A stretch of DNA of 64,000 bases from Candidatus Latescibacterota bacterium (GTDB lineage Bacteria; Krumholzibacteriota; Krumholzibacteriia; LZORAL124-64-63). The notes beneath the pieces are model-generated. The model had not been told where the DNA came from. It did not search any database and saw nothing but the letters and a program-made list of their open reading frames with translations. Positions 2,077 through 59,714 of the stretch are shown one piece after another (positions within the stretch are counted from its first letter, which is position 1; each line of letters opens with the position of its first letter). The stretch covers positions 42,954 to 106,953 of the forward strand of contig JAUSBL010000052.1 in the NCBI GenBank assembly GCA_030658975.1. Reading direction: 5' to 3'. Made by a program: the position numbers and the translations under genes.

Positions 2077-3374
2077 GGTCCGGAAATATCACCGAGACAG
2101 CCTGCGATGATTTCCGCCTTGTGGCGCCAGGTCTGACTCTCTGCCATCTGGCGGGACGCAGCACAGCGATCGCGCCAGGTGGCTTGGTCCTCGCCCAGTA
2201 TCGTCAGGATGGCCGCCGCGAGGGACCGCGCATCGTCCGGCGGCACCATCAATCCCGCCCCCCCATCCTGGATCTGCCGGCCCATCTCGTCCATTTCGTT
2301 GGTCACTACGGGCCGCCCGGAGGCGAGATAGGTCAGTGTCTTCAGTGACGAGATGGTGCCCTGATCGCCTCTGTTGCCAGGAAAGGTGGCAATGCAGACC
2401 GTGGCGCAACCCAAGTACTCGTTGACTTCACCGTAGGGTTTTTGACCCACGAGCGACACCTTGCTTGCGAGACCATGCCGCTCGATCTCATCCCTCAACC
2501 GTCCCTCGGTGATGCCGCCGCCAACAACAACGAATTGAACAGCAGGACAGCCACCGGCGACGATATCGACGGCGTCGACCAGAACCGCGAGCCCCTGCCA
2601 CGCGGAGATGACGCCGGCCCATACCACCGTCGGCACATCCTCGCGGCCTTGCTTCGCCAGACACTCCAGCCGGTCAAGTGGCATGAAAACCGAGGCATTC
2701 ACCCCGAGCGGCGCTTCGATGCACTTGTCCGCAGGTACGCCGAAATGGTCCTGAACGAAACGGATATAGCCGACAGCCCCCAGGACCCTGTCGGCCCTGC
2801 TGTACATGGTCCTTTCCCAGATGCGGGTCAGACCGATCAGCGCCGCATTGTTCGGCCGGTAGAGACGAACGTCGGCGGTCGGCAACCCGTTGATTTCGAC
2901 GATCAGGGGGCGGCCGCTGATCAGAGACACCAATAGCCCCACGAAGATCCCGGGTTCCATTCGCGAATACACGACATCCGGGTTGTAGCGGCGCACAGCT
3001 GCAATCCCCGCGATGGTGCCGGTCACGTTCCAGCTGAGTTGGCGGAGAAACCTAATGGCGAAGACAGGGGCGCGGACTTCGCGCAACTCGCTGTCGGCTG
3101 GAGCCTTCGGCCCAGGGAGGTTCAACAGAATCGGCTCCACGCCCGCCTCGCGGAGCGCGAAGGCCAGCTCCCGCGCATGCAGGGAGTCGCCCCGGTCCTT
3201 CCAGAGCGACAAGGCGCCGACTTGCAGAATTCGGAACCTGCGCCGAGCATCCATTTCATCACCTGTATCCTGATGGATGTCATCCCCCGGCGACCTTCCG
3301 GCGTCCGGGTCACGATTGCAACCTGTTCCAACACCGGCAATCACCCGGTGCGCCGATCCGTGGATGATCGGCAC
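2073..3374 (-). CDS. Glycosyltransferase family 4
   Basis: 433 aa ORF. GT4-like C-terminal block ...SGRPVVTNEMDEMGRQIQDGGAGLMVPPDDARSLAAAI. 4-nt overlap with downstream GT. Confidence 0.8.
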   Translation of the reverse strand: MPIIHGSAHRVIAGVGTGCNRDPDAGRSPGDDIHQDTGDEMDARRRFRILQVGALSLWKDRGDSLHARELAFALREAGVEPILLNLPGPKAPADSELREVRAPVFAIRFLRQLSWNVTGTIAGIAAVRRYNPDVVYSRMEPGIFVGLLVSLISGRPLIVEINGLPTADVRLYRPNNAALIGLTRIWERTMYSRADRVLGAVGYIRFVQDHFGVPADKCIEAPLGVNASVFMPLDRLECLAKQGREDVPTVVWAGVISAWQGLAVLVDAVDIVAGGCPAVQFVVVGGGITEGRLRDEIERHGLASKVSLVGQKPYGEVNEYLGCATVCIATFPGNRGDQGTISSLKTLTYLASGRPVVTNEMDEMGRQIQDGGAGLMVPPDDARSLAAAILTILGEDQATWRDRCAASRQMAESQTWRHKAEIIAGCLGDISGP

Positions 3375-4654
3375 ACACCAGACAAGAGGTTATCCAATTG
3401 ACTGCCGAGAGATGCGAGGGAGAACTGCTGGATAAAATCCCAGTTTGGAGCGTATCTCGCGGACAGTCTTTCGGCGTCCACCGCAATTTCGCTGATGAAA
3501 CCTGTGATACCGTCGAGATCCTGATTGTCGAAAACGGCACCAAGGCCGGATTGCTGCAGAATATCCGCAGCCTCGCTCTTCACCGGCATGACTCCCAGGA
3601 TCGGCAATCCTCGACCAAGATACTGAAACAATTTACCGGGAATCTGTGATGAGTACTTGGGATCGGCGTACTTGACCAGGAGCAGGATCCCAGAACGCGA
3701 CATTCTGGCTAGAGCCTCGTTTCTGGGCTCTTCCGGCAGCAGGCGCACGATCCGGCCAATTCCCAGGTCCCTGGCGAGCCGTATGGCCTCCGCTCCACCA
3801 ACACCGGCACCCAGGAGGTCGAGCCCTAAACGCTCCTCGTATTCCGGATGTCGGGCAATCGCCTTGGCTAGGGCCTCGACGACGATCCTGACATTGCGGC
3901 CTTGGCCGCCGGCGAGCGCTCCCGCGTGCAGGATCACGGTGCTCCGACCGCTATCATCGGGCCGTACTGGGGGCTTCGCCTCATCATACGACATGTAGAC
4001 CGGCACGATCCGATCCCGGCTCACGGAATGCCGGACGGCAATGTCTTCAGCCATGCTTCGTGTGGTCGTCAGGATCAGGGCCGACGCCTGGACCGTCTGC
4101 TCCAATGCTGCGAGTTCGGCCGCATGGGTCTTCATTTCCAAAGAGGGACAGGGATCCTGGAATTCGAGCACCAACGGAGAAGCGAAGTGGTCGGCAATCC
4201 GACGGGCGGCGACTAGGCTCCCGACATGACCTGTTGTCATGCCGATCACCATATCAGGGCGTTCCGGACGATTGCCGGTATACCAATCCGATGCTCTGGC
4301 CGGCCATCCTCGTTCGGGATCCCGGACGCGATGACCCCGACCCGTCAATGACAGGTATTCACGGTACATCCAGCGCGGCAGGCGGCCCCGAAGGTATTGC
4401 GGGTAGATGCCGGAAAAGGGTGTCCGCACCACAGACCCGACGAATTCATTCTCCGGCGACACGCCTGGGGTTACCCGATCAGCAGCCCCCGCCAACAAGG
4501 TGCAATTCCAACCACGGCCTGAGAGCGCACGTGAAACATCCAAAATCCGGGATGTTGATCCTTGCCATGAATACCGAAATGCCGTTTCGAACACGATCAG
4601 AACTGATTTCACGGTGCGGCCTCCACAATCCGACCCCGATGACGTTGGTTCCAT
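3341..4654 (-). CDS. Glycosyltransferase (GT4-like)
   Basis: 437 aa ORF. N-terminal KSVLIVFETAF... and C-terminal GILLLVKYADPKYSSQIPGKLFQYLGRGLPILGV typical of GT-B glycosyltransferases. True start probably GTG near 4612. Confidence 0.6.
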   Translation of the reverse strand: MEPTSSGSDCGGRTVKSVLIVFETAFRYSWQGSTSRILDVSRALSGRGWNCTLLAGAADRVTPGVSPENEFVGSVVRTPFSGIYPQYLRGRLPRWMYREYLSLTGRGHRVRDPERGWPARASDWYTGNRPERPDMVIGMTTGHVGSLVAARRIADHFASPLVLEFQDPCPSLEMKTHAAELAALEQTVQASALILTTTRSMAEDIAVRHSVSRDRIVPVYMSYDEAKPPVRPDDSGRSTVILHAGALAGGQGRNVRIVVEALAKAIARHPEYEERLGLDLLGAGVGGAEAIRLARDLGIGRIVRLLPEEPRNEALARMSRSGILLLVKYADPKYSSQIPGKLFQYLGRGLPILGVMPVKSEAADILQQSGLGAVFDNQDLDGITGFISEIAVDAERLSARYAPNWDFIQQFSLASLGSQLDNLLSGVCRSSTDRRTG

Positions 4655-4704
4655 TCTTGAATTGTTGGCCGCAAGGGTATTCGTTGTCTCCCCACTTCCG
4701 GAAG

Positions 4705-6285
4705 CTATCGGCGGCCATTACCGGGTGCAACCCCGCCGCCTCGTCTCAGGTACGACTTGAATCGGCCGGCGATCTGCTGAAATACCTCGCGATCGTTCTT
4801 TTCGAATCCAAGGACCCAACAAAGGACAATCCACAACATGACCGTGAGGGACACACACAACACCAGCGCGAAGAGGGATGTGGAATTCACCACATGATCA
4901 AGACCGAGAGCCGCCAATACCAATACCATGGCCACAACCAACGGGCGCCGGTAGGAAGCCCGGAAGTATTCCTGGCTGGTTAGGCCGCAGGCCTTCGCGG
5001 TGTAGAGTGCGGTCACCGGCCGTCTGATGGCCGTGATGATCACCGTCGGCACGATCACGCCCACGACTCCGAGTTGTGAGTACCGCACCAACAGGACCGA
5101 CCCGACGACGTTAAGAACGGCGAGGGGGACCTCCAGCCTGACGAGGAATCGCAGCCGATTCGTGCCCAGGAGAGTCGGGTAATGGACGCCGCCCGCATAA
5201 TTGAAAAAGTCGATCACCGACCACAGGATCAACATCCTGGCCACCGTGGCCACGTCGGCTCCCAGTGTTGTTCCCAGCCAGGCGGTGCATATCCTGTCAG
5301 CAAAAGCCGCCAAGATCGTACAAACGGGAATCCCCATCAACAGCGTGTAGCGCGTTCCCCTCAGCAGCAGTTCCTGGAGGTGCCGCGTGTCTCCCCTGAC
5401 GTGATATCCGGTTGCCAGCGGCGAGAATTGATGCGAAAGCGTCTCCACCAGCGGATGGAAGGCATTGGCAAGAGAGGCGGCCGGGGCGTAAAGCGTCACA
5501 GCCGCGGTTCCGAGCAGAGCAGTCAGGATGATCGGATCGACCCGAATCCCGATCAATGCCGTCAACTGCAAGGCGAAAACATATCCGCCCAGAGACAGCA
5601 GTGCCACGACGGCCTTGCGGTTAACCAAGGACAAGCGCAGACGCAATCCCGGCGTGATGCGCCAAGCAGTGAATCCCAGCAGCAGAAGGTTCACGATCAG
5701 GGCCATGGACATAGCCAAGGCCCAACCGGTGATGCCCCAATCGGATAAGTTGATGACGCCGACGATCAGAGCGCCCCTCAACAGCCCCACACCGGTCTGG
5801 ATATTGTTGATCAGGTCGAATCGGTTGCTGCTGGCGATCATCGTCTCGAACGCCGCAACAAGGAAAGTCAGCAGGATTCCGGGGGATCCGTACCAGCGGA
5901 TGATGAACTGCGCTTCGCGCGTGAGCTGATCGGGAATTTTCAGGGCCGCGACGATATCGGCCGACAGGACAAAAAAGGTCGAAGCCAGCGTGACTCCCAT
6001 CAACAGATAGATCAATAACGCGCTGCTGGCCTGCTCGTTGAATCGCTTCACGTTCTGCAATGCGGCGTGCTCAGAGAGAAATCGCCCCAGGGATCCACGC
6101 AGGCCCAAATCCGCCACCGTGCACATCCCAACCATGGCGACGACGAGCGAAACGAGTCCATAACCGTCACGAGCGTAATGGCCGATCATATACGGCACCA
6201 GCATCAGGCCTACCGCAGCATTGGCGAGCGTCGCAAGACCCCGACTGGCGGCATTGATGACAATTCGTGTCGAAGTCAGCAATCG
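4705..6285 (-). CDS. Wzx-type polysaccharide flippase (MOP/oligosaccharide flippase family)
   Basis: Multi-TM protein, about 12 predicted helices, RIVINAASRGLATLANAAVGLMLVPYMIGH N-terminus typical of polysaccharide biosynthesis flippases. ORF-track start 6405 is an upstream extension overlapping the ligase gene. Start here is approximate. Confidence 0.65.
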   Translation of the reverse strand, partial: RLLTSTRIVINAASRGLATLANAAVGLMLVPYMIGHYARDGYGLVSLVVAMVGMCTVADLGLRGSLGRFLSEHAALQNVKRFNEQASSALLIYLLMGVTLASTFFVLSADIVAALKIPDQLTREAQFIIRWYGSPGILLTFLVAAFETMIASSNRFDLINNIQTGVGLLRGALIVGVINLSDWGITGWALAMSMALIVNLLLLGFTAWRITPGLRLRLSLVNRKAVVALLSLGGYVFALQLTALIGIRVDPIILTALLGTAAVTLYAPAASLANAFHPLVETLSHQFSPLATGYHVRGDTRHLQELLLRGTRYTLLMGIPVCTILAAFADRICTAWLGTTLGADVATVARMLILWSVIDFFNYAGGVHYPTLLGTNRLRFLVRLEVPLAVLNVVGSVLLVRYSQLGVVGVIVPTVIITAIRRPVTALYTAKACGLTSQEYFRASYRRPLVVAMVLVLAALGLDHVVNSTSLFALVLCVSLTVMLWIVLCWVLGFEKNDREVFQQIAGRFKSYLRRGGGVAPGNGRR

Positions 6286-7517
6286 TCGCCTCGATTGCGA
6301 GGGGTTGCTCGCGTCGTTCCGCTGCCGCTGAAAGTGACGACCAGAAGTGCCTGTGACACCCAAACAAGGTAGTTCGTTGTGAGATCGCCACTCACCATGG
6401 CGCACACCACGGCGAACACGAAAAGTCCTGCGGCCCCCTGACGGAGGAGCTTCGGCTCGTACCGGTTCTCCACGCTTCTGCGCAATCCTCGCCAGCCGGC
6501 GATGAAGTAAGTGCTGAAGATCATGAGCCCGACCACTCCGGTCTCGATCAACACTTCGCCCACTAGGTTATGCACGAACTGACGCGTGCCCAGCGGTCCC
6601 TCGTTGTACCTGAAATGACCGGTGCCGATGCCCCAAATCGGGGAGGACTGGAGTTCCACCCATCCCTGTCTTGCGATGGCCATCCTGTATTCTTCATGTT
6701 CGCTGTTCGAGCGCTGAATGAAGAGAAAGGTCAACGCGGCGACTCCGAATACGATGACGGTCGCCGTGCCGGCAAGTTGGATCTTTCGCTTGCTGCGGGG
6801 AGAGTCCCTGTCGTTGAGCAGCGGCCGGATTAAAACGACTAGTCCGCAGATGAGCGCCAGCAAGGGCCCGCGTTCCCCCACCACGATTTGCCCGATAACT
6901 AGCACGATCAAGTACAGCAACAGCAGTACGGCATTCCATCGGCGCGCCAACATGGCCATCGTCAAAGCGATCAGGCCGCCGACTCCCAGGGATCGGCTGA
7001 TGCCGATGATGTCATAATCGAGATGTAGCAGCAGCCACCTCACTGATGCCGTACCGGAAGCCTGTTGCAGCAGCAGCGGCAGGAACAGGGGAACGACGGA
7101 CAGAATCAGCAAACATTTGTAGAGGAGAAGAGTGCAGGCCGGGCGATTCCTGTGGTTCCACAGGATCGCCATCGAAGGCATGACTGCGTAGAGGATGAAG
7201 CCCTGCGTCTTCCAGACACCATAGGGCGAGGGCTCGAAACGCAACATGGACAGGAACAACACGAGGACCGCAGCCAGCAGGCACAACGACATGAAAATCG
7301 TGCGCCGTGATGCCCGCAAACCCGACCTGGCCGCCACCGCGAGATTGAGCGCAGCCGCCACCGCGCCGACGATCAGACTCCTGGATCCGGAAAGCGCACC
7401 CGGAAGCACGAACTGCCAGATCAGCATGCCCTGCAGCAATACCGCCAGGCTGACGACGGCCGCCGCCTCCAGAATCGAACATCTCGCACGGGATTCCTCA
7501 GCTGCCGCGCCGCTCAC
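6276..7517 (-). CDS. O-antigen ligase / Wzy_C-domain polymerase-like membrane protein
   Basis: 413 aa, polytopic membrane protein with a large periplasmic loop. GTG start at 7517, 1 nt after the Wzz-like stop. Confidence 0.6.
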   Translation of the reverse strand: MSGAAAEESRARCSILEAAAVVSLAVLLQGMLIWQFVLPGALSGSRSLIVGAVAAALNLAVAARSGLRASRRTIFMSLCLLAAVLVLFLSMLRFEPSPYGVWKTQGFILYAVMPSMAILWNHRNRPACTLLLYKCLLILSVVPLFLPLLLQQASGTASVRWLLLHLDYDIIGISRSLGVGGLIALTMAMLARRWNAVLLLLYLIVLVIGQIVVGERGPLLALICGLVVLIRPLLNDRDSPRSKRKIQLAGTATVIVFGVAALTFLFIQRSNSEHEEYRMAIARQGWVELQSSPIWGIGTGHFRYNEGPLGTRQFVHNLVGEVLIETGVVGLMIFSTYFIAGWRGLRRSVENRYEPKLLRQGAAGLFVFAVVCAMVSGDLTTNYLVWVSQALLVVTFSGSGTTRATPRNRGDDC

Positions 7518-7518
7518 C

Positions 7519-8511
7519 TCAGTTCCCCGAAGTCGCAGGGCGCCCGCGGACCAGAACCCAACCGCATGCCAGCACGAATCCGAGCGCGGCTCCGCCCAGG
7601 GCGATCAGCGATCGGCTCGGGGCAGAGCGGACGAAGGGTACCGTCGCTGAATCAAGCACCTCGATCGCGATCACATCCTTGTTTTCGTCGATCTTGGCAA
7701 TTTCGAGCTGCCTTTTCAATTCGATCCAAACCGCTGTCTGGACCTGCAGGTCGCGGGTCAATTCCGTATGGCGTCGGTTAAGTAACGGAGAGGTTGCGAA
7801 GGACCGGTTCTGCGATTCGAAGTCCGCCAGGCTGGATGCGGCCGCATCGAGTTCGATCCGGATTTCATCGAGCCGATCCGAGATGAAGCGTCTTTGCTCC
7901 GAGGCCCTGCCCCGCGACATCTCCTGGAGGTAGGCGTCGAGTTCGCCGGCGAGCGCATTTGCCAATTCCGCCGCGAGTTCGGGCCACCGGGGAAGGCTGA
8001 CGCTGATCTGCATGTAGCCCGTTGCGGCGCGGCGCTCGAAGGAAATGACCTGCCGCCTGAGGTTGCTCTTGAAGCGCTCCCGCTCGGCCCATGTCTTGAC
8101 CGGAGCGTCGGGGTGCTTGCGCGACCCGAGCAGCTCCATCAACGGCCTGGGATCGTCTCCGGCATATCTGCTCCACTGTTCGTCGAGTATCCGGTCCAGC
8201 ACCCTGTTGGAAGTGATGATCTGGCCATAAAGGTCTTCGTAGGTGGGCCCGTTGCCGAGTTGCATGTTCGTCAGGGACGCGAGTTGACCCAGTAAATTCT
8301 GTTGGGTGCCCTGGTCGCGCGGCAAGAGCGATACCCGGGCCGTATAGATCGGCGGCAACAGCAGAGAGATCACGGCGGCGATGACGCCGCAGATCAGGAT
8401 CACTGCGGCGATCAGGCGTCGGCTCCTCCACATCAACCTGGTCAATTGCACGACACCGATCTCGTCGTCGCCCGTCGATGCCGGCATTTCGTCGTACGTC
8501 CGTGTCATCAC
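7519..8511 (-). CDS. Wzz/GumC-like polysaccharide chain-length determinant (no kinase domain)
   Basis: 330 aa. N-terminal TM then LLPPIYTARVSLLPRDQG (Wzz motif), coiled-coil region, C-terminal TM. No Walker A/B BY-kinase domain. Confidence 0.7.
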   Translation of the reverse strand: MMTRTYDEMPASTGDDEIGVVQLTRLMWRSRRLIAAVILICGVIAAVISLLLPPIYTARVSLLPRDQGTQQNLLGQLASLTNMQLGNGPTYEDLYGQIITSNRVLDRILDEQWSRYAGDDPRPLMELLGSRKHPDAPVKTWAERERFKSNLRRQVISFERRAATGYMQISVSLPRWPELAAELANALAGELDAYLQEMSRGRASEQRRFISDRLDEIRIELDAAASSLADFESQNRSFATSPLLNRRHTELTRDLQVQTAVWIELKRQLEIAKIDENKDVIAIEVLDSATVPFVRSAPSRSLIALGGAALGFVLACGWVLVRGRPATSGN

Positions 8512-10851
8512 TGTGTCCTATCGATCACCAAATAGATCGTGGCCGCACTGGCCAGGATGCTGGCGATCTCCTTCAGCGTCTCCATGCTGCCCGGACCCGT
8601 CTCGGGCTGCTTCTCCGGCACCACGATCGTCGATCCCGGCATGACGTCCGGGTCCCCCCAGACCCGCCGGATCTGCTTGGACATCCCGTTGGGATAGACG
8701 ACGTGCGTCTTCCACTTGTCGGCCTGGTGGGCGTAGCCGCCGGCGCGGGAGATGTAGTCGCCGAGGCTGTGGCCCTTCTCGTAGACGATGCTCGTGGGGA
8801 AGCCGACCGCGCCGGTGACCTTCACGGTGTAGGGGCGCGCCGGGATGCGGATGTCGTCGCCCTGCTCGAGGATGGCGTCCTGCTCGCTGCCGGGCTTATC
8901 CAGCGCCCGGTCGAGGTCGAGGGCCATGTTGCCGATGTCGTCCTTGCCGCGCACGATGCGGGCGGCGGGCGCGTAGGCCGTCGGCTTCAGGCCGCCGGCG
9001 CGGGCGATCACCGAGGAGAGCCGCTCGTCGGGACGCTCCAGCGCGTAGGTCCCGGGGTAGTACACCTCGCCCTGGAGGGTGACGATGCGCGGCAGTTCCC
9101 ACCAGGGCAGGCGCCGCACGGCGACGCGATCATGCGGTTCCAGGACGAACACGCCGCCCGACCGCAGCCAGTCCTCGCCCAGATCGACTTCGATGACCTC
9201 CACGGTGCTCGCCGGCGGCGCCGCGATGTCGCGGCTCTCGACGGCGGCGCGGCGCAGGCGCGAGACCTCGGCGTGCAGCACGTCGGCCGATTCGCGCAGG
9301 CCGCCGGCCAGCAGGATCAGGTCGCCCAGGGTCATCCCCTCGCGGAAGTCGAACTCGCCGGGCTTGCGCACTTCACCGGACATGCTCACGCGGTAGCGGT
9401 CCTGAAGGTCCCAGCGCGAGAAGACGCGCAGCTTGTCCCGGGACTGCAGCGGCGTCGGCGGCGACGCGCCCGACATGGCGTCGGCCAGGGGCACCTCGAT
9501 CGTGCGGTAGGTGAGGTCGGGATCGAGCCGCTCGATCAGGGCCCGCTCGGGCAGCGTATCGGCCCACAGGCCGCCCGCCTGGCGGACCAGGTCGGCGACC
9601 GTCATCCCCTCGCGGAACTGGTAGCGGCCGGGGTTCTTCACGTTGCCCTGGGCCTCGACCCAGTTCTCCAGGCGCTCGGGGATGCGGTCCACGCTCACGA
9701 CGTCGGCGTCGCGCAGCAGGTGCCTCATCTTCAGCAGCAGGTTCAGGTCGGACTGCACCCGGTCGGGCTGCTCGGGCCGGCGCTCGGGGAGCGGCACGAT
9801 CCGCGTGACGTGCACGACGTCGGCCACCGCCTCGGCCGTGAAGCCGCCGGCGTAGCGGATCAGGTCCAGGACGTCCTCGCCGTCCAGCAGCTCGTAGGCC
9901 TGGGGGCGGCGCACCTCCCCCTCGATGCGCACCGTGATCGTGCGGGCGGGGATCAGCACCGTGTCGCCGTCGCGCAGGACGGGGTCGTCGCCGCGGCGGC
10001 CCTCCAGCAGGTAGCGGTAGAAGTCGATCTCGGCCAGGACCTGGTTGCCGCGCAGCACCTGGATCCGCCGCAGGCTGCCCTGGGCGTTGGGGCCGCCGGC
10101 CGCGTAGACGGCCGTGAAGGCGGTCGACAGGCTGGTCAGTTCGTAGGCGCCCGGCTGGCGGGCCTCGCCCACCACGAACACGCGGATGGCGCGCAGGGCG
10201 CCCAGGCTGACGTCCACGAACGTGGTGCCCCCCTCGCCCGACGGGTCGATCCCCGAGTAGGAGCCGGCCAGCTTCTCGCGCACCGCGCGGGTCACCTGCT
10301 CCAGCGTGCGGCCGGCGCAGAGTACCTTGCCGCCCTTGGGCAGGATGATGCCGCCGTCGCGATCCACCACGCGCTCGAGGCGGAACTCGACCTCGCCGAA
10401 CACATCCACGCTGACCTGGTCCCCGGGTCCGAGCACGTAGTCGGGCGGCACGGGGCCGAAGGCCGGCGGGGCGAACACGCCCGGATCGAGGCGGAAGAAG
10501 TCGGAGCCGAACAGTGCGCCCTCGGCGGTCAGCAGCGTCTCGGCGGCGGCGGCGACGGGAACCGCGGCCATTTCCAGGTCGAAAGGCAGGATCACGCGGG
10601 GGCCGGGCGGCAGCGCGGTGCGTCCAGGCGGCAGGGTCGTGTCGACCGCCGTCGCGCCCTGCTCCTGCAGGCGCTGCCTCAGCTCCTGCTGCGTGAGGCC
10701 CGTGCGTCGCATCGCCTGCTCGAGGAGTTCGGGCGGGACGTCCTGGGCGGAGGCAGGACCGGCGAGGGCGGCCAGCACCGCCCACGCGGCCAGCAGCGAC
10801 AGCAGCGCCGGCAGGCGGCGTCGACGGAAACTCTGATGACCGAACGGCATC
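8508..10851 (-). CDS. Wza-like polysaccharide export protein with multiple SLBB (beta-grasp) repeats
   Basis: ORF 8508..10943 trimmed to ATG 10851 (MPFGHQSFRRRRLPALLSLLAAWAVLAALAGPASAQ signal peptide, GGAGAG SD 6 nt upstream). Repeated PGDxVxV...G.V..PG blocks typical of Wza/GumB SLBB domains. Confidence 0.8.
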
Positions 10852-20937: not shown

Positions 20938-22210
20938 CCGCTTTCGCGACCGCACCCGCGCGCATCCGCCCGATCCCCCGCACCACCACCGCGCCATAAG
21001 CCAGCGTCACCCACGCCGACCCGGCCAGCACCGTCCAGGCCGCGCCCGTCATGCCGTGCGCCGGGATCAGCCAGCGGCCCAGCGCCACCAGCAGCACGGC
21101 GTTCAGGGCGTGGATCACGAGCTGGGGTCGGAACGCCTGCATGGCCGTGGCCGGCGCCCCGAGCAGGCTGCCGAGGTTCATGATGCCGCCGCCGGCCATG
21201 ATCAGCACGAAGAGGTCCGCGCGCACCGCGTACTCGGCGTCGTAGACCAGGGTGAGCAGGGGGCCGCCCCACCACTGCGCGACCGCCACGCCGGCCAGGC
21301 CGAGCGCCACGCCCACGGCCATGAGCTTGGCCACGGTGGAGCGGAAGGCGCTCGCTTCCCCGTCGGCGTAGTTGCGGGCCAGCCGCGCGATGCTGGACTG
21401 GGACAGGGCCATCACCACCGTGTTGGAGACGAGCACCAGGTAGGCCATGGCCGAGAAGATGCCGAGCGCCTCCTCGCCCTGGGCGCTCTCGAGCATGGTG
21501 CGGGGCACCGTGTTGCGCAGCTGGATCAGCAGCATGACGACGCCCAGCGGCAGCGCCGTCCAGATGATCGCCTTGATCGCCGCGGGTCGCCAGCGCGGGG
21601 CCAGCGTGCCGCCGTCGCCGTCGTCCGTCGCGCGCACCAGGGCGCGGCAGCGCGGGAGGTCGAAGAGCAGCAGCGGCGCCGCCCAGGCCACCGGCCAGGC
21701 CACCAGCGCCGCGTTGAGGCTCCCCGTCCAGCGGTAGACGACGGCGAACAGGACCAGCGAGACCAGGCCGCGGATCATCAGCGAGCGGGCCATCAGGTCC
21801 ATGCGCTCGCGCTTCTGCTCCAGGCCGTAGAACACGTCGCCCACGCCGTCGATCACGCGGCCGATCCCGTACAGGACGATCGCCGTGACCTGGGCCCCGC
21901 TGTAGCCGGCCAGGCCGACGCCGACCACCGCGACCAGCGCCAGGGGCGCCAGCAGCAGCTGCACGCCCAGGTAGTCGCGGAACGGGAAGCGGCCCTGCGC
22001 GTCGCTGACGAAGACGGACCTCAGCTGGAGGTTGGCGAAGACCACCAGCGGCGTCGCCACGGTCGTGGCCAGCGAGAGGCGGCCCACCTCCGCGGCCGAG
22101 CCCAGCTTGGTCAGCACGACCAGGATGCCCCACTGGCTGGCGGCGAAGACCACGTTGCCGAGGAAGGTCCAGGTGAAGTTGCGCCGCAGGGAGGGTGGGG
22201 AGGCCGCCAT
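20924..22210 (-). CDS. Wzx-type polysaccharide flippase (second copy)
   Basis: Extracted from 1036-aa ORF artefact. ATG 22210 (MAASPPSLRRNFTWTFLGNVVFAASQWGILVVLTKLGSAAEVGRL...), classic flippase N-terminus, 12 TM. TAATG overlap with WbpM-like stop. Confidence 0.7.
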   Translation of the reverse strand: MAASPPSLRRNFTWTFLGNVVFAASQWGILVVLTKLGSAAEVGRLSLATTVATPLVVFANLQLRSVFVSDAQGRFPFRDYLGVQLLLAPLALVAVVGVGLAGYSGAQVTAIVLYGIGRVIDGVGDVFYGLEQKRERMDLMARSLMIRGLVSLVLFAVVYRWTGSLNAALVAWPVAWAAPLLLFDLPRCRALVRATDDGDGGTLAPRWRPAAIKAIIWTALPLGVVMLLIQLRNTVPRTMLESAQGEEALGIFSAMAYLVLVSNTVVMALSQSSIARLARNYADGEASAFRSTVAKLMAVGVALGLAGVAVAQWWGGPLLTLVYDAEYAVRADLFVLIMAGGGIMNLGSLLGAPATAMQAFRPQLVIHALNAVLLVALGRWLIPAHGMTGAAWTVLAGSAWVTLAYGAVVVRGIGRMRAGAVAKAGGTA

Positions 22211-24165
22211 TACGCGGTCGGCCCGGTCGGGGCGGCGGTCGGCGGCATTTCCGCGGCCTCGCGCGTCTGGCCCTGGAAGTCGGGCACCAGTTCCAGCAGC
22301 TGTTCCCAGCACTCGCGCATGTTGCCGGCGGCGGCCGATGTGAGCAGCGCGTCCACGCGGGCGTCGAGGTCCGGCACGCCGCCGGTGCGGCGGGCCACGC
22401 GGATGCCCGGGTTGCTGGTGGGCTCCGGCTTCTCCTCGGGCGTCCACAGCTCCTCGTAGAGCTTCTCGCCCGGCCGCAGGCCGGTGTAGACGATGGGCAC
22501 GTCGATCTCGGGCGTCAGCCCCGACAGCTGGATCATCTGCCGCGCCAGGGCGTCGATCCGCACCGGCGCGCCCATGTCCAGGATGAAGATCTCGTCGCCC
22601 GTGCCCATGCCCGCCGCGTAGAGCACCAGGTGCACGGCCTCGGCGATGGTCATGAAGTAGCGCTCGATGCGCGGGTCGGTGACCGTCACCGGGCCGCCCT
22701 TGCGGATCTGCTCCAGGAACAGCTCCACGACGCTGCCCGCCGACCCCAGCACGTTCCCGAAGCGGATGGTCGAGAAGCTCGTGCCGCCCTGGTCTCCGGC
22801 GCCCAGGTGCTGGATCACGCGCTCGGCGATCTGCTTGGTCGCGCCCATGACGCTGGTGGGCCGCACGGCCTTGTCGGTGCTGATCTTCACGAAGCGCTCG
22901 ACGCCGTAGCGCTGGGACAGTCGCGCCATCGTGCGCGTGCCGCCCACGTTGTTGCGGATCGCCTCGACGGGATGGAACTGCAGGATGGGCACGTGCTTGT
23001 AGGCCGCGGCGTGGAACACGATCTGCGGCTTCCAGCGCGAGAACAGGGCGTCCATGCGCCCCTCGTCCTTGACGTCCCCGAGGAAGAAGGCGAGCGCGGC
23101 GTCGGGCCGGCGCCGCCGCAGCTCCTGCTCGAGACGGAACAACCCGTTCTCGTCCTTGTCCAGGCAGACCAGCCGCAGGGCCCCCTGGTCGACGATCTGC
23201 CGGCACAGCTCCGAACCGATGCTGCCCGCCGCCCCGGTCACCAGCACGATGCGCCCCTCCAGCAGCCGGCGGATCTCCGGCACGTCCGAACGCACGACGC
23301 GCCGGTTGAGCAGGTCGTCGAGCGAGAAGTCCTGGATGCGGGTGACCGCCTCGCTGCTCTGCAGCACCTGCCAGATGTCGGGGGTGGTCTTCAGCGGCAG
23401 GCCGGTCTCGCGGCACAGCTTCACGACGCGGTACAGCTGCGCCGTGGTGGCCGCCGGCATCGCCAGGATGATCGCCTCGGCCCTCGTGCGCCGCGCCACC
23501 TCGCCGATGACGTCGATCGGCGTGGCGACGCCCACGCCGTGGATCGTGATGCCCTGCTTGAGCGGGTCGTCGTCGACGATGGCCACCGGCCGGTAGGCGT
23601 TCAGCCTGGCCGTGTTCATGGCTTCCAGCACCAGGTTGCAGGCCCTGCCCGCGCCCACGATGACCACGCGCGTGCGCGGGCCGGCGTCGATGCCCCGCGA
23701 GAGGTGGTCCAGGATGCGGTACGCGTAGCGGCCGACCACGGCCAGCGCCATGCACAGGACGGTGTCGATGATCAGCACCGAGCGGGGGAAGGCCCCCTGG
23801 TAGGCCCACAGCAGGATCGCGGCGTCGAACGCCGATCCGACCAGGATCGCGTTGATCATCGGCGGCACGTCCCGCAGACCGGCGAACCGCCACGAGACCC
23901 GGTGCAGCCCGAAGGCGGCGAACACAACCAGTCGCACCGGCACGGCCACCAGCAGCATCGACTGCCACCACTCGGGCCACTTGGGCACCTTGCGCAGCCA
24001 GGACCACTCGAAGCGGATGAGAAAGGACAGGCACACCGACAGGGCGGCGATCGCGCCGAAGAAGGCGAAGAAGAAGAGCAGACGGTGGCGCCGGACCATG
24101 AGGCTCAGGGGTCCGGACGTCGGCGGGCGCAGAACGCCGAGGGTCTTGCGGATGCGTTCGACCAT
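22210..24165 (-). CDS. WbpM/PglF/CapD-type membrane UDP-N-acetylglucosamine 4,6-dehydratase
   Basis: 651 aa. N-terminal TM helices. LVTGAAGSIGSELCRQIVDQG and second Rossmann block. Family hallmark two-domain architecture. Confidence 0.85.
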   Translation of the reverse strand: MVERIRKTLGVLRPPTSGPLSLMVRRHRLLFFFAFFGAIAALSVCLSFLIRFEWSWLRKVPKWPEWWQSMLLVAVPVRLVVFAAFGLHRVSWRFAGLRDVPPMINAILVGSAFDAAILLWAYQGAFPRSVLIIDTVLCMALAVVGRYAYRILDHLSRGIDAGPRTRVVIVGAGRACNLVLEAMNTARLNAYRPVAIVDDDPLKQGITIHGVGVATPIDVIGEVARRTRAEAIILAMPAATTAQLYRVVKLCRETGLPLKTTPDIWQVLQSSEAVTRIQDFSLDDLLNRRVVRSDVPEIRRLLEGRIVLVTGAAGSIGSELCRQIVDQGALRLVCLDKDENGLFRLEQELRRRRPDAALAFFLGDVKDEGRMDALFSRWKPQIVFHAAAYKHVPILQFHPVEAIRNNVGGTRTMARLSQRYGVERFVKISTDKAVRPTSVMGATKQIAERVIQHLGAGDQGGTSFSTIRFGNVLGSAGSVVELFLEQIRKGGPVTVTDPRIERYFMTIAEAVHLVLYAAGMGTGDEIFILDMGAPVRIDALARQMIQLSGLTPEIDVPIVYTGLRPGEKLYEELWTPEEKPEPTSNPGIRVARRTGGVPDLDARVDALLTSAAAGNMRECWEQLLELVPDFQGQTREAAEMPPTAAPTGPTA

Positions 24166-24271: not shown

Positions 24272-24970
24272 CTACCAGCTGCGGACGGGGCCAGTGTCCA
24301 GGTGAATGAAGCGCGAACCGGGGTAGTAGCCGACGCCGCCGGACTTCAGGTCGCGGGCGGCGCGGCGCAGCTGTGCGAGCTGGACGCCGGGCAGGCTCAC
24401 GTCGACGGCGCGGCCGTTGATGTGGTAGCTGTGCTTGGCCACGCCGGCGCCGCGGCGGCGCATGGCCGCGTTGGTGGCCGGGGACCGGTACCCGCAGACG
24501 ACCTGGAAAGGCTCGGACGAGTCGAGCTTGGCGGTCACGTCGTGCAGCAGGTCCAGCAACTGGGGGTCGATGGGCTTGACCTCATCGTTGCGGTGGTCCC
24601 GCAGCAGTCGATCGAGGGCAGCCGTCGCATCTGGCACGAGGATGCCCTTCTCCCGGTAGGCGCAGGACAGCCGCTCGCCGGTATTGACGTTCAGCAGCGA
24701 AATCAGGTGTGCGTCCGGGACGCCGGGGATCCCCGTCGGCGCCGGGGGCGGCGGAGCGCCGAGGACGTCGCTCCCGGTCACCGCAGCGGCCAGGGGCAGG
24801 GGCGCCAGGCAGGCCAGTGCCACGCCTCCGAAGATCCGCAGGAAGCGCCGCCGGTCGACGGCGTCGTTGTCGATCTGGTTGGTCAAACAGGATGTCCCTT
24901 CACGATGCCGATGTCCTCGCGGACGCTCCGACCGGCGGCTACCTGACTCTTCCTGGAGGAAGACGGGCAA
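24272..24970 (-). CDS. DUF882/peptidase M15A-like protein with twin-arginine signal
   Basis: DRRRFLRIFGGVALACLAPLPLAAAV Tat motif. C-terminal HSYHINGRAVDV and HLD motifs of YcbK/M15A family. Start uncertain (ATG 24970 or TTG 24886). Confidence 0.6.
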   Translation of the reverse strand: MPVFLQEESGSRRSERPRGHRHREGTSCLTNQIDNDAVDRRRFLRIFGGVALACLAPLPLAAAVTGSDVLGAPPPPAPTGIPGVPDAHLISLLNVNTGERLSCAYREKGILVPDATAALDRLLRDHRNDEVKPIDPQLLDLLHDVTAKLDSSEPFQVVCGYRSPATNAAMRRRGAGVAKHSYHINGRAVDVSLPGVQLAQLRRAARDLKSGGVGYYPGSRFIHLDTGPVRSW

Positions 24971-25139: not shown

Positions 25140-26999
25140 ATGGCGTCCCCTCGCCAGCACCGCAACTTTAACATCATGCCGCTCTTGATGTTACTGCTCT
25201 TGGTGCTGGCCGCCGCCGCCGGCTGGCGCTGGCAGGCCTGGTCGCGGGCGATCAACCTCATGCTGCCCGAAGGCTCCCGGCCCGCCCGCATGACCTTCGC
25301 CGTCGAGGAACACGACCGCGACGGCTTCGAACTGGTCGCCAGGAGCCTGGACCTCGAGTTCCGGCGCAACTTCGACCACGTGGACCGCTTCCGCGAAGCC
25401 GGCATCCGCTCCTACCGCGGCCCCGAGACCTGCCTGGTCTGCCACCGGGAGATCGAGTTCGTGAACACCTACGGATTGCCCCGCCGCGAGGATCTCATGA
25501 AGAACCTCACCGGTTCGGTGCACTACCGCTTGTTCAGCTCGGACCACAAGAATGTCCGCGGCTTCAGCGGCCGCTCGGCCGACGGCCTGCCCATGGGCAT
25601 GATCGACCGCCCCTGCCCCAAGCCGGGCTCATTCGCGATGACCGCCTGGGCCGAGTGGGTCGTCAACACGCGGGGCGACACCCTCAGCGAGGGCTGCGGC
25701 CAGTGCCACATCGGCGGCCAGGCGCAGGCCCCCCTCGGCGAGATCATGCCCCACTACAGGACGCTGCCCGAGGAGCGCGACGCCATCGACTGCCTCATCT
25801 GCCACGCCGCGGCCTACGACTTGAACCGCAGGCAGGTGGTCCGCGACGCCAACGGCCGCCTGCGCTGGGACCAGGACCGCAGCCTGCGCGCCGCCCTCTC
25901 GGTGGAGACGCCGTCGTCGCAGTCCTGCCTGCGCTGCCACCAGCACAACATGGGCGGCGACGTCTACGTCGACCCGAAGGATCCCTCCTTCACACCCTCG
26001 TCGCGCGCACGCGGCGACCGCTACCCGCGCGTGATGCACCCCGGCTCCAAGCGCGGCACCCCCTACTCGCCGTCCTGGGACGTGCACGCCGCCGCCGGCC
26101 TGGCCTGCCTCGACTGCCACCCCACCGAGGGCCACCGCATCGCCAAGGGCACGCACACCACCACGATGATGGCCAACGACCTGCCGGACGTCGAGGTGGC
26201 CTGCGAGCGCTGCCACACCGACGCACCCCACGAGGACAACACGCGCACCGCCCGCATCCTGAACGAGCACGGCACCTGGATCGCCTGCGTCACCTGCCAC
26301 ATCCCCAGCCTCCACCCCGACAACGTCACCCGCCGCGATTTCTCGCAGACGGTCCTGGAGACGGAGCAGGGCATCCACATCTACGATGATGTGGAGAAGC
26401 TGACCGGCCCGGGCGAGGGCCTTGCCTACGTCTGGTGGAACGGGGACGCCACCTTCCTCGGCAACCCGATCGGCGACAACCCCGACGGCACGTGGCGCGC
26501 CTACACGGCGCCGCACCGCTGGCCCGAGTGGGAGCAGTACGACTACGACGCCTGGTACGAGCGCGTGATGCGCCCGCTGGCGGCCGCGGGCCGCCCCAGC
26601 AAGCTGTACGCGATGAAGCGCTTCAACGGCCGCCAGCACATCGACCTGCAGAACGCCGGTCCCTTCGGCGGCATGTTCGTGCCCTACAACCTGCCCCTGT
26701 ACTACCGCGACGGCGACCCCGACGCCGCCGCCCGCGCCGAGATGGAAAAGCCCATGATGAAAATGATGTACGGCCGCATGTTCCAGATCTACCTCATGAA
26801 CCGATTCATCAGCTACATGGATGTCCCCGGCTGGAACACCCAGGCCTACGAAGACGTCCGCGCCGGCCGCCAGGTCGAGCCCCGCTGGCTGCCCGAAGAC
26901 GCCATGCTCGAGGTCAGCCACGGGGTGCGCCTGAAAGGGGCGCTGAATTGCCGCGACTGCCATGCCCCCGACGGCAGCATGGCGCCCTTCCTTCCTTAG
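25140..26999 (+). CDS. Membrane-anchored octaheme c-type cytochrome
   Basis: N-terminal TM (MPLLMLLLLVLAAAAGW) and eight CxxCH motifs: CLVCH, CGQCH, CLICH, CLRCH, CLDCH, CERCH, CVTCH, CRDCH. Confidence 0.8.
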   Translation: MASPRQHRNFNIMPLLMLLLLVLAAAAGWRWQAWSRAINLMLPEGSRPARMTFAVEEHDRDGFELVARSLDLEFRRNFDHVDRFREAGIRSYRGPETCLVCHREIEFVNTYGLPRREDLMKNLTGSVHYRLFSSDHKNVRGFSGRSADGLPMGMIDRPCPKPGSFAMTAWAEWVVNTRGDTLSEGCGQCHIGGQAQAPLGEIMPHYRTLPEERDAIDCLICHAAAYDLNRRQVVRDANGRLRWDQDRSLRAALSVETPSSQSCLRCHQHNMGGDVYVDPKDPSFTPSSRARGDRYPRVMHPGSKRGTPYSPSWDVHAAAGLACLDCHPTEGHRIAKGTHTTTMMANDLPDVEVACERCHTDAPHEDNTRTARILNEHGTWIACVTCHIPSLHPDNVTRRDFSQTVLETEQGIHIYDDVEKLTGPGEGLAYVWWNGDATFLGNPIGDNPDGTWRAYTAPHRWPEWEQYDYDAWYERVMRPLAAAGRPSKLYAMKRFNGRQHIDLQNAGPFGGMFVPYNLPLYYRDGDPDAAARAEMEKPMMKMMYGRMFQIYLMNRFISYMDVPGWNTQAYEDVRAGRQVEPRWLPEDAMLEVSHGVRLKGALNCRDCHAPDGSMAPFLP

Positions 27000-27036
27000 A
27001 TCCTGTAGTTACGATGCCCCTCAGTCAGCCCTTACA

Positions 27037-27080
27037 TGTATAGATATGTATCAATTCATGGATATATCGTACCCTATACA
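27037..27080. repeat. AT-rich palindromic motif in convergent intergenic region (cytochrome / dsrC)
   Basis: TGTATAGATATGTATCAATTCATGGATATATCG followed by CTATACA (inverted copy of TGTATAG). Related to motif at 46390..46410. Confidence 0.4.
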
Positions 27081-27406
27081 CATCCATCTGGTTTTGGAAG
27101 ACCAGCGTATTTGCAGGCGCCGTGGGCGGGCCCCTTGGGAAACAGCTCGTAGATCCGGCTCAGCTTGAAGCCGGTCTCCTGGCAGAGGAGGCGGACCATC
27201 GGGGCGCGGTCGAGGCGGGACCAGTACGCGCGCAGGAACTCCAGGACCCGCCAGTGCTCGGCGGTGAGTTCGGGCAGACCGTCGGCGGCGGCCAGGGCGG
27301 TGGCGATCGCGGGGGTCCAGTCGTCGGGGTGGACCATGAAGCCATCGTGATCGACGGTCAGGCGCACGCCGTCGTACTGGAAGAGTCTGGGATCCCCGCT
27401 CGCCAT
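27074..27406 (-). CDS. dsrC: DsrC/TusE-family sulfur-relay protein with both conserved C-terminal cysteines
   Basis: ORF trimmed to ATG 27406 (GGAGGG SD). C-terminus ...HGACKYAGLPKPDGCV, i.e. Cys-X10-Cys-Val-COOH, the DsrC signature. Confidence 0.8.
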   Translation of the reverse strand: MASGDPRLFQYDGVRLTVDHDGFMVHPDDWTPAIATALAAADGLPELTAEHWRVLEFLRAYWSRLDRAPMVRLLCQETGFKLSRIYELFPKGPAHGACKYAGLPKPDGCV

Positions 27407-27485
27407 GCCTTCCCTCCGGTGCCGATGATCAGCGAACGTTAGCGCACCCAGGGGAGGGAGGCAAGTCATGGGCGGGCCCTTCAAC

Positions 27486-27509
27486 GAGAGACCCGGCTCG
27501 CGCCGGGTC
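27486..27509 (-). terminator. GC-rich hairpin between secreted-protein gene and dsrC (possible intrinsic terminator/attenuator)
   Basis: GAGACCCGGC-tcgc-GCCGGGTCTC, perfect 10-bp stem, followed on the minus strand by TCGTTG (poor U-tail). Confidence 0.35.
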
Positions 27510-27541
27510 TCCCGTGGTCATCGGATTCCGGGTTCTGCGGA

Positions 27542-28327
27542 TTACCGATACAGCGTCTTGACCGTGCCCCAGGTCATGTCCTCGTTGGCGACGGTGCCCA
27601 GGTCCTGGAACGTGATGTTCGCCCAGTCGACCTGGACGTAGCCGTTCAGGTCGCCCTGCTGCAGGAACTGCAGGAAGTCGCCGCCGACCTGGGCGTTGTC
27701 GAGCATGCCCCAGGTCCCGTAGGGCTCGGCGGGGTTGCCCATGTCGAAGGCCAGCGCGCCGCTGGTGTACGGCGTGCCGCCGATGGTGACCTTGTACTCG
27801 ATCGTCGCCGGGGAGCCCGCGTTGAGGCTGTTGGGCATGTACACGACTTCGGCGTGCACGGTCTCGCCCTTCACGTAGTGCAGGCCCTGCGAGGCGGTGA
27901 AGCTGTAGAAGGGCAGCCGGCCGCCGAAGCAGGCGATCTCGCCGTCGTTGGTGCGGAAGTTGAAGGCTCCGCCCACGGCCTGGGACCACCACGGGGCGAT
28001 GGCCAGCGTGGCCTCGGCCTCGCCGGTGCCGCTGATGGTCAGGTCGCAGCTGTAGCTGAACCCGTCGCCGTTGGCGAAGTTCTGGGCGACGCCGCCGTCG
28101 GCGAAGCGCCAGTTGTGGCGGCTGCCCCAGCCCGCGCCGCACATGACCTTCTGCTCGTGGATGGAGACCAGGGCGCTGTAGTTGTTGGTGCTGGTGACGG
28201 TGCCCAGGGGGCAGTCGTTCCAGATCCGCTCGGTGATTACGGCGCCGTTGGGCACGTTGGTGGCCAGGGCCACCGACGAGATGGCCAGCAGCAGCGCCAG
28301 CAGCATCAGCTTATGAGTCGTCTTCAT
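27542..28327 (-). CDS. Secreted hypothetical protein (signal peptide, 4 Cys)
   Basis: MKTTHKLMLLALLLAISSVALA signal peptide. No recognisable family. Within the T9SS/TBDR operon. Confidence 0.6.
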   Translation of the reverse strand: MKTTHKLMLLALLLAISSVALATNVPNGAVITERIWNDCPLGTVTSTNNYSALVSIHEQKVMCGAGWGSRHNWRFADGGVAQNFANGDGFSYSCDLTISGTGEAEATLAIAPWWSQAVGGAFNFRTNDGEIACFGGRLPFYSFTASQGLHYVKGETVHAEVVYMPNSLNAGSPATIEYKVTIGGTPYTSGALAFDMGNPAEPYGTWGMLDNAQVGGDFLQFLQQGDLNGYVQVDWANITFQDLGTVANEDMTWGTVKTLYR

Positions 28328-28435
28328 GTTGAGTCTCCCTGTGTTGTTGATCGTTCGTTCGCTCGGATCAGGATCCCGTTCCGTTTCTTGCTGACTCGCC
28401 TCCTCTCTTCTCGCTTCCCGTGCGTGTCTTCCCTC

Positions 28436-30059
28436 TCAGCGCACCAGGATGCAGCGTTTCCAGACCTTCTCCCGGTCGGACTCCAGGGAGTAGAAATAGG
28501 CACCGCTGGGCAGGCCCTCGAAGTCGAGGGTGACCTGGTGCCCCCCTTTGTCCTGCGATTCGTCGACGTAATTGCGGACCATCCTGCCGCGGGCGTCGTA
28601 CACGCTGAGCGTGACGCGGCCCGGCTGCGCCAGGCTGTAGGCGACGGTCGTGATGCCGTTGCAGGGGTTCGGCGAGTTCTGGCCGAGTACGAGGCCGGAC
28701 GCGGCCGCGTCCCCGGCCGCCACGGTCGTCGCGGCCGTGAAGCCGGCCAGTTCCAGGCCGCGGCAGACGTCGGGGTTGCCGCCGAAGCGCTCCCAGACCG
28801 ACCCGGTGCGGTAGTTCTCGATCATCATGATGATGGGGCCCTGGTCGATGCCCAGGTAGTCCTGCGCCCACCAGAAGCGCGTCAGGTTGAACGCGTCCTT
28901 GAAGCCGTACTCGCCCCACAGGGCCAGGCGGAAGGAGTCCCAGAACTTGTGCAGCGTGGGGATGACGATCTCCGGCGCGAAGGCGATCGAACCGCCCGCC
29001 GCCGTCGGGGAGATCGTGCCGTTGTCGTTCTGGCCCGGGGGCGCGCCGTGGGCCACGTAGCCGTCGGGATCGATCGACGCCGTCAGCCCCCACACGTCCC
29101 CCGCGTAGCCGACCCAGCCGCGCGGGTTGGCGATGCAGTACTCGCGGGCGGCGAGCGTCGCCCGGCGGGAGTTCTCGTGGTAGGTGATGCCCCGGTTGCG
29201 CATGTAGGCGTCCTGGATGTGACGGAAATCGATCCAGCAGTGGCTGTACTGGTGGCCGAAGAGGGGGGGGAAGATCACGTACGTCTGCCCGTACTGGGTT
29301 CCCCACCAGTAGCCGAGCGTCCAATTATACCACGTCCAGGCGGGCACCGGATGGGTCGGCGAGCCGATGGCCAGGATGTAGAGGATCATGGCCTCGTTGT
29401 AGCCGGTCCAGTCGCCGAAGCCGGAAAAGCCCGTTCCGGGCTTCCAGCCCATGCGGATGCCGTTGCCGCCGTTGCGCATGAAATCCCAGTCCACGCGGTA
29501 GTAGATGGAGTCGGAGAGGGCGCGCAGGTGGGTTTCGCGGTCGCCGGGGCCGTCGAAGTACTCCTTGGCGTCGAGGATGCCGGCGATCAGCAGCGCCGTG
29601 TCGATCGACGACAATTCGCAGTCCCAGGTGCGGACGCCCGTATTCAGGTCCAGGAAGTGGTAGAAGAACCCCTTGTAGCCGTTGACGTTGACCGCTTCGG
29701 GGCCCTGGGGCACGCTCCACAGCTTCTCCAGCCCGCGGATGATGCGCTCGCGCGCCACGTCGCGGGCGACCCAGCCGTGATCGACGGCGATGCAGTAGGC
29801 GGAGTAGCCGAAGCCCTGCGCGGCGATGCTGCAGACCGACCAGTCCTGGCTGCCGTCCTTGATCAGGCCGGAGCCGACGCTGGCCTCCTCCCAGAAGTAG
29901 TCGAACGCGGTGTGCTGCAGGGTGTCCAGCAGAGCCTCGGTGGTCAGGGCCCGGGCGCTGGGGACCGGAGCGAACAGGGCCGCGGCGACCAGCGCGACGA
30001 AGAGCGCAACCGACAGGGACCGCCGACGGCCGGGTTCGCGCTGCTGGGTGGTCGACATG
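28436..30059 (-). CDS. Six-hairpin glycoside hydrolase-like protein (GH144/DUF3131-like, putative endo-beta-1,2-glucanase) with T9SS C-terminal sorting domain
   Basis: ORF trimmed to ATG ~30059 (MSTTQQ..., GGAGG SD), signal peptide. GFFYHFLD, FGHQYSHCWIDFRHIQDAYM blocks shared with gene at 54117..55616. C-terminus LGQNSPNPCNGITTVAYSL...LSVYDARGRMV...GAYFYSL is a Por_Secre_tail-type CTD. Confidence 0.7.
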
Positions 30060-59266: not shown

Positions 59267-59269
59267 GCC

Positions 59270-59704: not shown

Positions 59705-59714
59705 AGGAGCACCG

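Follow-up and report, generated by a model that had tools for sequence, protein, structure and literature searches.

The small gene that stands between a beta-1,2-glucan locus and an octahaem cytochrome gene in the 64 kb of DNA analysed here (the whole stretch is called the window below) is, judging from its sequence, a genuine and functional dsrC, coding for a cytoplasmic protein with two cysteines that is a new member of a known family. We tentatively favour an ordinary DsrC with dsrAB and dsrMK encoded elsewhere in the genome, a reading that leads the others and falls a little short of probable. The genes on both sides (the T9SS/beta-1,2-glucan locus and the periplasmic cytochrome) are best explained as not being partners of dsrC. 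The features on which the analysis turns are collected in Table 1.

Table 1. Positions in the window of dsrC, of the elements in and around it, and of the flanking genes and regions.
Feature	Position	Strand	Remark
Exopolysaccharide/O-antigen cluster	1-24165		CapD-like gene first
CapD/PglF-like gene, first gene of the exopolysaccharide cluster	22210..24165	-	Co-directional with and downstream of dsrC
MepK-type peptidase	24272-24970		
Octahaem c-type cytochrome, 619 aa, N-terminal signal/anchor	25140..26999	+	Convergent with dsrC; not judged a partner
AT-rich spacer separating the stop codons of dsrC and the convergent cytochrome gene	27000..27073	.	74 nt, GC 0.30-0.50
dsrC CDS	27074..27406	-	110 aa + stop
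Last 12 codons of dsrC, C-terminal arm KYAGLPKPDGCV	27077..27112	-	AT-ending codons almost throughout; peptide conserved
CysA of dsrC, residue 109	27080-27082	-	
CysB of dsrC, residue 98	27113-27115	-	
Shine-Dalgarno sequence GGAGGG	27412..27417	-	5 nt before the ATG; kept in four relatives
Motif GCGCTAACGTTCGC in the dsrC leader	27432..27445	-	Conserved; candidate promoter or operator
Perfect 14-bp G+C-rich hairpin	27484..27515	-	Starts 27 nt past the stop of the 261-aa gene
Secreted 261-aa protein, no family match	27542..28327	-	End gene of the beta-1,2-glucan/T9SS locus; not judged a partner
Mostly beta-1,2-glucan utilisation genes	27542-55616		
ExbBD/TonB	58550-61018		

The protein and its family

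The translation of the gene (MASGDPRLFQ...GPAHGACKYAGLPKPDGCV*, 110 aa) ends in GACKYAGLPKPDGCV, with both cysteines in place, and a longer C-terminal stretch reads ...FPKGPAHGACKYAGLPKPDGCV. Ten residues separate Cys98 from Cys109 and the terminal pair is Cys-Val. The Pfam profile of DsrC (PF04358) matched the protein with 112 bits over profile positions 2-107 of 107 and the family profile TIGR03342 (DsrC/TusE/DsvC) with 103.7 bits, for a cut-off of 53.5, while the TusE equivalog NF008562 gave 66.5 bits, under its cut-off of 191. The comparison with the PDB went in the same direction, with 119 bits for the DsrC of P. aerophilum (1ji8), 99-109 bits for the DsrC chains of Desulfovibrio-type DsrAB complexes, 92 bits for the Allochromatium DsrC and only 29 bits for a TusE-like sulfurtransferase chain; the DsrCs that are proven partners of DsrAB (1ji8 and D. 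vulgaris 2v4j_C) scored 98-119 bits. The protein has 47% identity with the DsrCs of Pyrobaculum and D. vulgaris, and 32% with E. coli TusE (sequence taken from the MG1655 record). Three marks of a DsrC sensu stricto are found here, a full-length domain, CysB-X10-CysA on the arm and a greater closeness to characterised DsrCs than to TusE. DiSCo accepts as DsrC a protein that has two cysteines or departs from AGLPKPTGC at one position at most (PMC8477390), and the window protein, whose C-terminal motif is complete, is of this kind.

Both cysteines are present in all 120 of the top homologues (the best 120 of 2306 matches), and in a neighbour-joining tree the window protein falls inside the two-cysteine DsrC set. 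Among four close genomes the dN/dS of dsrC is 0.12-0.25, comparable to that of the neighbouring genes. The constancy of the two cysteines and these ratios together indicate that dsrC is under purifying selection and that its match to the family is not due to chance; the same ratios led us to drop the idea of a pseudogene or decaying remnant. No signal sequence was detected on the protein. The sequence-only reading of this DNA had called the product a two-cysteine DsrC-type protein as opposed to TusE, and on this point profile scores, PDB scores, identities, cysteines and the tree that it had asked for all agree with it. An RspA identity was dropped, as proteins of that type have lost the C-terminal cysteines and both are kept here.

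The likeness to the DsrCs of P. aerophilum (1JI8) and D. vulgaris (2V4J) extends to the length, the full-length Pfam and TIGRFAM matches, the ca. 47% identity and the arm, GPAxGACKxAGLPKPxGCV, with its CysB-X10-CysA-Val ending. A small difference from the dissimilatory proteins is the ending PDGCV in place of PTGCV, and PDGCV is common to many database homologues. TusE (E. coli YccK) belongs to the same family, TIGR03342, and shares the penultimate cysteine and the PKP..C ending, but it has Thr at the position of CysB. Given these shared traits one could imagine a TusE-like role, in which CysA would by itself hand persulfide sulfur on to an enzyme that makes tRNA 2-thiouridine or another thio-cofactor. 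CysA and the ending PKPxGC[VI] are indeed common to TusE, and several databases name close homologues "tRNA 2-thiouridine synthesizing protein E", although these names are automatic. However, we consider this role very improbable. The window protein is far under the equivalog cut-off, its identity to E. coli TusE is low (for these two reasons we dropped the TusE identity), CysB is universal among the 120 top homologues and neither tusBCD nor mnmA is found in the 64-kb window; moreover, TusBCDE is, to our knowledge, essentially gammaproteobacterial. A single-cysteine DsrC/TusE-like protein from Bellilinea caldifistulae (L018) provides a useful comparison, being a member of the same family with 43% identity to the window protein, but with CysB missing and a sulfur-trafficking context, neither of which is true of the window dsrC. 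In that locus (7976-10838) the gene has an SQR-like flavoprotein/DUF1641 pair on one side and a DsrE-like gene on the other.

As to its distribution, the exact window protein is on record solely on one 20-kb Logan contig. The scan of species-representative genomes retrieved relatives with 82-85% identity as the nearest ones (best 85%), stemming from activated sludge and from a "SOY" sample, and then, at 59-63% identity, one "Candidatus Krumholzibacteriia" MAG together with several MAGs labelled Fibrobacteraceae. Outside this lineage, the closest DsrCs with a readable gene context (L024, L028 and L029, from Aminicenantales and related MAGs) have ca. 60% identity and the same arm; in the neighbour-joining tree P0019/P0021 and a Bacteroidales/Zixibacteria group are nearer to the window protein than these three.

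Transcription unit and local divergence

The true start of dsrC is the ATG at 27406, kept in four relatives. Further 5' the alignment contains indels that are not multiples of three and break the frame, so that a longer open reading frame beginning with TTG at 27484 was dropped, the upstream alignment being non-coding. The leader motif GCGCTAACGTTCGC was found once in the whole window. The hairpin next to the 261-aa gene was spotted by eye as well as by folding; for the 76-nt segment around it, the minimum free energy is -35.2 kcal/mol (z = -2.75), and the structure is kept in four relatives, where the substitutions preserve pairing via G-U. A scan of positions 26900-28500 for consensus promoters and terminators found nothing, and the hairpin was not called as a terminator because it lacks a T-run. 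Still, it is likely to act as a terminator or stabiliser that parts dsrC from the upstream operon, from which dsrC is also separated by a 135-nt spacer. On the other side of dsrC, folding of the spacer between it and the cytochrome stop revealed no significant secondary structure.

Taking together the hairpin, the leader motif, the Shine-Dalgarno sequence of its own and the convergent gene downstream, dsrC looks like a one-gene transcription unit. It had been described as the tail of a T9SS/TBDR operon, a description that we could not sustain, as the conserved hairpin, the 135-nt spacer and the motif and ribosome-binding site of dsrC intervene and as relatives with 59-64% identity are without that locus and have other genes upstream. 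The linkage of dsrC to the T9SS/beta-1,2-glucan locus is in fact confined to relatives with at least 80% identity.

The 3' end of the gene is peculiar in its codon usage. GC3 drops to 0.08 in the last 12 codons, versus 0.93 in the remainder of dsrC, and among 12,718 windows of twelve codons, taken from 27 other genes, none had a value as low as this. The AT-rich patch extends from the arm codons through the spacer (27000-27110), and a BLAST search for its donor gave no match among all the loci fetched. The relatives write the same KYAGLPKPDGCV arm with GC-ending codons; in other words, the residues of the arm are the same as in the close relatives save for one K/R change, and the codons have been recoded synonymously almost wholly. 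That the arm has been kept despite this recoding shows that its sequence is held by selection. Divergence at synonymous sites is also high over the gene, with a dS of 0.40-0.55 for all pairs among the four close genomes (the window genome, L010, L002 and L005) but L010/L005 (0.13), above the 0.03-0.29 of six flanking genes. The gene is a local hot spot of divergence, perhaps through allele exchange.

Neighbours in the window and in related genomes

Pfam and NCBIfam scans covered all the sizeable ORFs of the 64-kb window, and among them there was no Dsr gene beside dsrC itself and no Hdr, Tus, DsrE or rhodanese gene; mnmA was not found in the window either. The earlier statement that sulfite reductase, Hdr-like and Tus genes are missing from the window is borne out by these scans, and its picture of the surroundings, secreted and T9SS proteins and a convergent octahaem cytochrome, was correct as well. 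The GC content of the window is ca. 69%, and Krumholzibacteriota MAGs with 69-71% GC have been described (PMC10936416). This GC content, the T9SS genes and the names of the related MAGs suggest an uncultured, Krumholzibacteriota-like lineage of the FCB group. Positions 1-8000 hold the distal genes of the exopolysaccharide cluster (GT4 glycosyltransferases, Wzy and Wzz) and have 59-64% GC versus ca. 70% elsewhere, a low value that is typical of horizontally exchanged surface-polysaccharide genes. The large beta-1,2-glucan region comprises two GH144 endo-glucanases (one of them T9SS-tailed), GH94, GH1, an ABC sugar transporter, a LacI regulator, a TonB-dependent receptor, a PorV/PorQ-family protein and a T9SS-tailed protein of 1088 aa.

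The close relatives share the gene order of the window, with the exception of L002, in which an 840-aa T9SS gene sits between dsrC and the cytochrome gene. In the relatives at 59-64% identity, dsrC is embedded in what we predict to be sugar-nucleotide/exopolysaccharide operons, with apparent translational coupling to a UDP-GlcNAc 2-epimerase gene. It follows this gene with stop and start overlapping or abutting in L008, L012, L020, L044, L058 and L085, and stands behind SatD-DUF3307 in L026 and L030; in L032 the preceding gene is cut by the contig end. Examples of dsrC abutting or overlapping the 2-epimerase or DUF3307 gene can be seen in L008 (8908-10330), L012 (3754-4957), L020 (8908-10336) and L030 (1020-2111). 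A co-directional CapD-like gene is found 0.1-4.3 kb past dsrC in each of the eight arrangement classes that make up the core lineage. In the sister clade L035, dsrC is present but exopolysaccharide genes are not, and no CapD-like gene is downstream. Within ca. 10 kb of dsrC, neither these eight arrangement classes nor L035 have dsrAB, dsrMK, hdr or asr.

The constant position of dsrC ahead of the CapD-like gene, and the contact of its start with the 2-epimerase or DUF3307 gene in several arrangements, could be read as the sign that DsrC senses redox state and regulates or assists exopolysaccharide synthesis, with the helix-turn-helix-like part of its fold combined with the cysteine arm as sensor; the DsrC of A. 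vinosum reportedly binds DNA. We regard this as highly improbable. The synteny can be explained by shared ancestry, as the genomes compared are fairly close (their CapD proteins are 68-77% identical), L035 keeps dsrC with no exopolysaccharide genes, two unrelated genes stand between dsrC and the CapD-like gene in the window, and such a role has no precedent.

The other neighbour, the cytochrome, has eight CXXCH sites and an N-terminal signal/anchor, and this anchor together with c-type haem attachment sites places it outside the cytoplasm, in the periplasm. Its family is uncharacterised, with seven haem sites in the first 390 aa, a haem-free part of ca. 215 aa and the eighth site at the extreme C-terminus, and it weakly resembles octahaem tetrathionate reductase (1sp3, 35 bits). 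In five arrangement classes, roughly one half of the classes with sufficient readable flank, orthologues with 65-66% identity and the same eight haem sites are found 0.2-5 kb from dsrC, and in L035 the two genes are divergent and 175 bp apart. These proximities speak for the proposal that electrons or sulfur travel from the periplasmic octahaem cytochrome through a membrane module and arrive in the cytoplasm at DsrC. There is a model for such a path in the Tmc and Hmc complexes of sulfate reducers, where a periplasmic multihaem cytochrome connects by way of cytochrome b and a CCG protein to DsrC.

However, most of what we found points the other way. Periplasm and cytoplasm would keep the two proteins apart, and neither the window nor any of the related loci has a membrane or CCG subunit. 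In all the related loci dsrC and the cytochrome gene are on opposite strands, the 840-aa gene intervenes in L002, and this cytochrome gene is missing within 10 kb of dsrC in L008 and from the 10 kb upstream in L026 (just 1.8 kb of sequence is available upstream of dsrC in L030). Seen from the cytochrome, the association is weaker still. In a sample of 70 metagenome loci of the family (L037-L106, 57-90% identity), 27 have an upstream flank of 5 kb or more, and 2 of these carry dsrC on that side; the downstream flank is as long in 28, none of which has dsrC there. Of the 12 loci with at least 9 kb on either side, one has dsrC. Clustering of the neighbours at 60 loci gave no conserved neighbour of the cytochrome. 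The contigs carrying these loci have from 30 to 70% GC, a sign of the wide distribution of the family, which is also unusually conserved. On the two flank counts we dropped the idea that cytochrome and DsrC genes form a general pair, and our best reading of the proximity is a synteny inherited within one lineage. The persulfide or trisulfide carrier linked to the adjacent cytochrome, as had been suggested from the window, is thus left largely unsupported by compartments, strands, the intervening gene of L002 and the flank counts, and the path from the cytochrome to DsrC is in our opinion improbable.

Partners and possible role of DsrC

If neither neighbour is a partner, there are two main ways of accounting for this gene. 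The favoured one is the ordinary DsrC already mentioned, for which we infer the existence and identity of DsrAB and DsrMK in the window genome. DsrC is a sulfur and redox shuttle in microbes that respire sulfite. Its flexible C-terminal arm would insert CysA into the sirohaem sulfite reductase DsrAB, a CysA-S-CysB trisulfide would then form on DsrC, and a CCG-domain reductase (of the DsrK/HmcF/TmcB type) would return the trisulfide to the dithiol with release of sulfide. The genes for DsrAB and the CCG reductase would be located at other sites of the genome, a frequent situation with dsrC. Many sulfate reducers, Desulfovibrio among them, have dsrC as a separate transcription unit, unlinked to the others, which fits this reading. 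Like dissimilatory dsrC genes, that of the window is small and stands by itself, away from other dsr genes; unlike them, it sits at the edge of polysaccharide loci, with dsrAB and dsrMK not seen in the window. As dsrC is commonly unlinked from dsrAB, a lack of dsrAB in 64 kb is uninformative.

The protein itself argues for an ordinary DsrC, being closer to proven partners of DsrAB than to TusE and having the full C-terminal motif, an arm under strong constraint at the protein level and low dN/dS. In complete genomes, a DiSCo-positive DsrC without DsrAB was found in just four cases (PMC8477390), and DsrABCMK is treated as a minimal set (PMC10504309). Nor is the phylum devoid of dsrAB, as the Krumholzibacteriota MAG GCA_011772205.1 (order WVZY01) is among 415 DsrAB sequences (PMC12948486 Table S1) and one Krumholzibacteriota "SRB MAG" has been reported (PMC10580873). 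On the other hand, no dsrAB, dsrMK or hdr was found in the 64-kb window or in the ca. 10 kb around dsrC in the relatives, a survey of 950 genomes with dsrAB names no Krumholzibacteriota in its text or available supplement (PMC10591310) and those of Zodletone were credited with Asr/Hdr only (PMC9040765). The coupling to a UDP-GlcNAc 2-epimerase in exopolysaccharide operons is, besides, atypical for a respiratory gene, and the nearest relatives are MAGs of activated sludge and soil.

The main rival, which we find possible although rather unlikely, is a DsrC that is independent of DsrAB, a general two-cysteine persulfide/disulfide shuttle or "bacterial heterodisulfide" working with no sulfite reductase. 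It would be loaded by a sulfurtransferase (e.g., a cysteine desulfurase) or oxidised by a redox partner, and re-reduced by an HmcEF/TmcBC/DsrMK-like or Hdr-type CCG reductase encoded elsewhere. What suggests it is the context of the three outside-lineage DsrCs described above, whose two-cysteine dsrC clusters (L024 7902-11495, L028 8001-11480 and L029 6596-11786) include an HmcE/TmcC-like cytochrome b, an HmcF/TmcB/DsrK-like CCG protein (all below equivalog cut-offs) and a TIGR01977 cysteine desulfurase, with no dsrAB within 8-10 kb of dsrC. The lack of dsr genes near dsrC anywhere in the lineage of the window points in the same direction, as does the absence of Krumholzibacteriota from the portions of the 950-genome survey cited above. 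Along similar lines, D. vulgaris DsrC also works with FlxABCD-HdrABC (cited in PMC10504309), and DsrC matches at the BLAST level exist in 50-90 genomes without DsrAB (PMC8477390). However, the cluster of HmcEF-like and desulfurase genes is missing around the window dsrC and all its lineage relatives, so that no CCG reductase or desulfurase is near dsrC in this lineage, the MAG cited above shows that one member of the phylum does carry DsrAB (PMC12948486), and the hallmarks of the window sequence are indistinguishable from those of DsrCs that are partners of DsrAB. A more specific version would be that high-GC, Krumholzibacteriota-like polysaccharide degraders without DsrAB keep DsrC as a thiol/persulfide shuttle independent of sulfite reductase, co-transcribed with the sugar-nucleotide genes that head exopolysaccharide clusters and recycled by a distant CCG-type reductase; we would put this forward as a conceivable scenario, against which we would sooner bet.

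Returning to the ordinary DsrC with distant partners, the location of dsrC between unrelated genes is a normal arrangement and says little about the rest of the pathway. To deduce from the neighbourhood that dsrC is an orphan and that it is linked to the cytochrome is to over-read a normal gene arrangement. The question matters since metagenome surveys rely on dsrC to recognise dissimilatory sulfur metabolism. If the lineage is without dsrAB, a two-cysteine DsrC alone would be an unreliable marker, and the protein would have a "bacterial heterodisulfide" role outside sulfite reduction; such a shuttle use would extend to the large group of DsrCs of uncultured lineages that are clustered with HmcEF-like genes and cysteine desulfurase. 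If, instead, the lineage has dsrAB, this dsrC would flag another poorly known group of the FCB superphylum (Fibrobacterota-Chlorobiota-Bacteroidota) that has the potential to reduce sulfite and occurs in sludge, soil and lake water.
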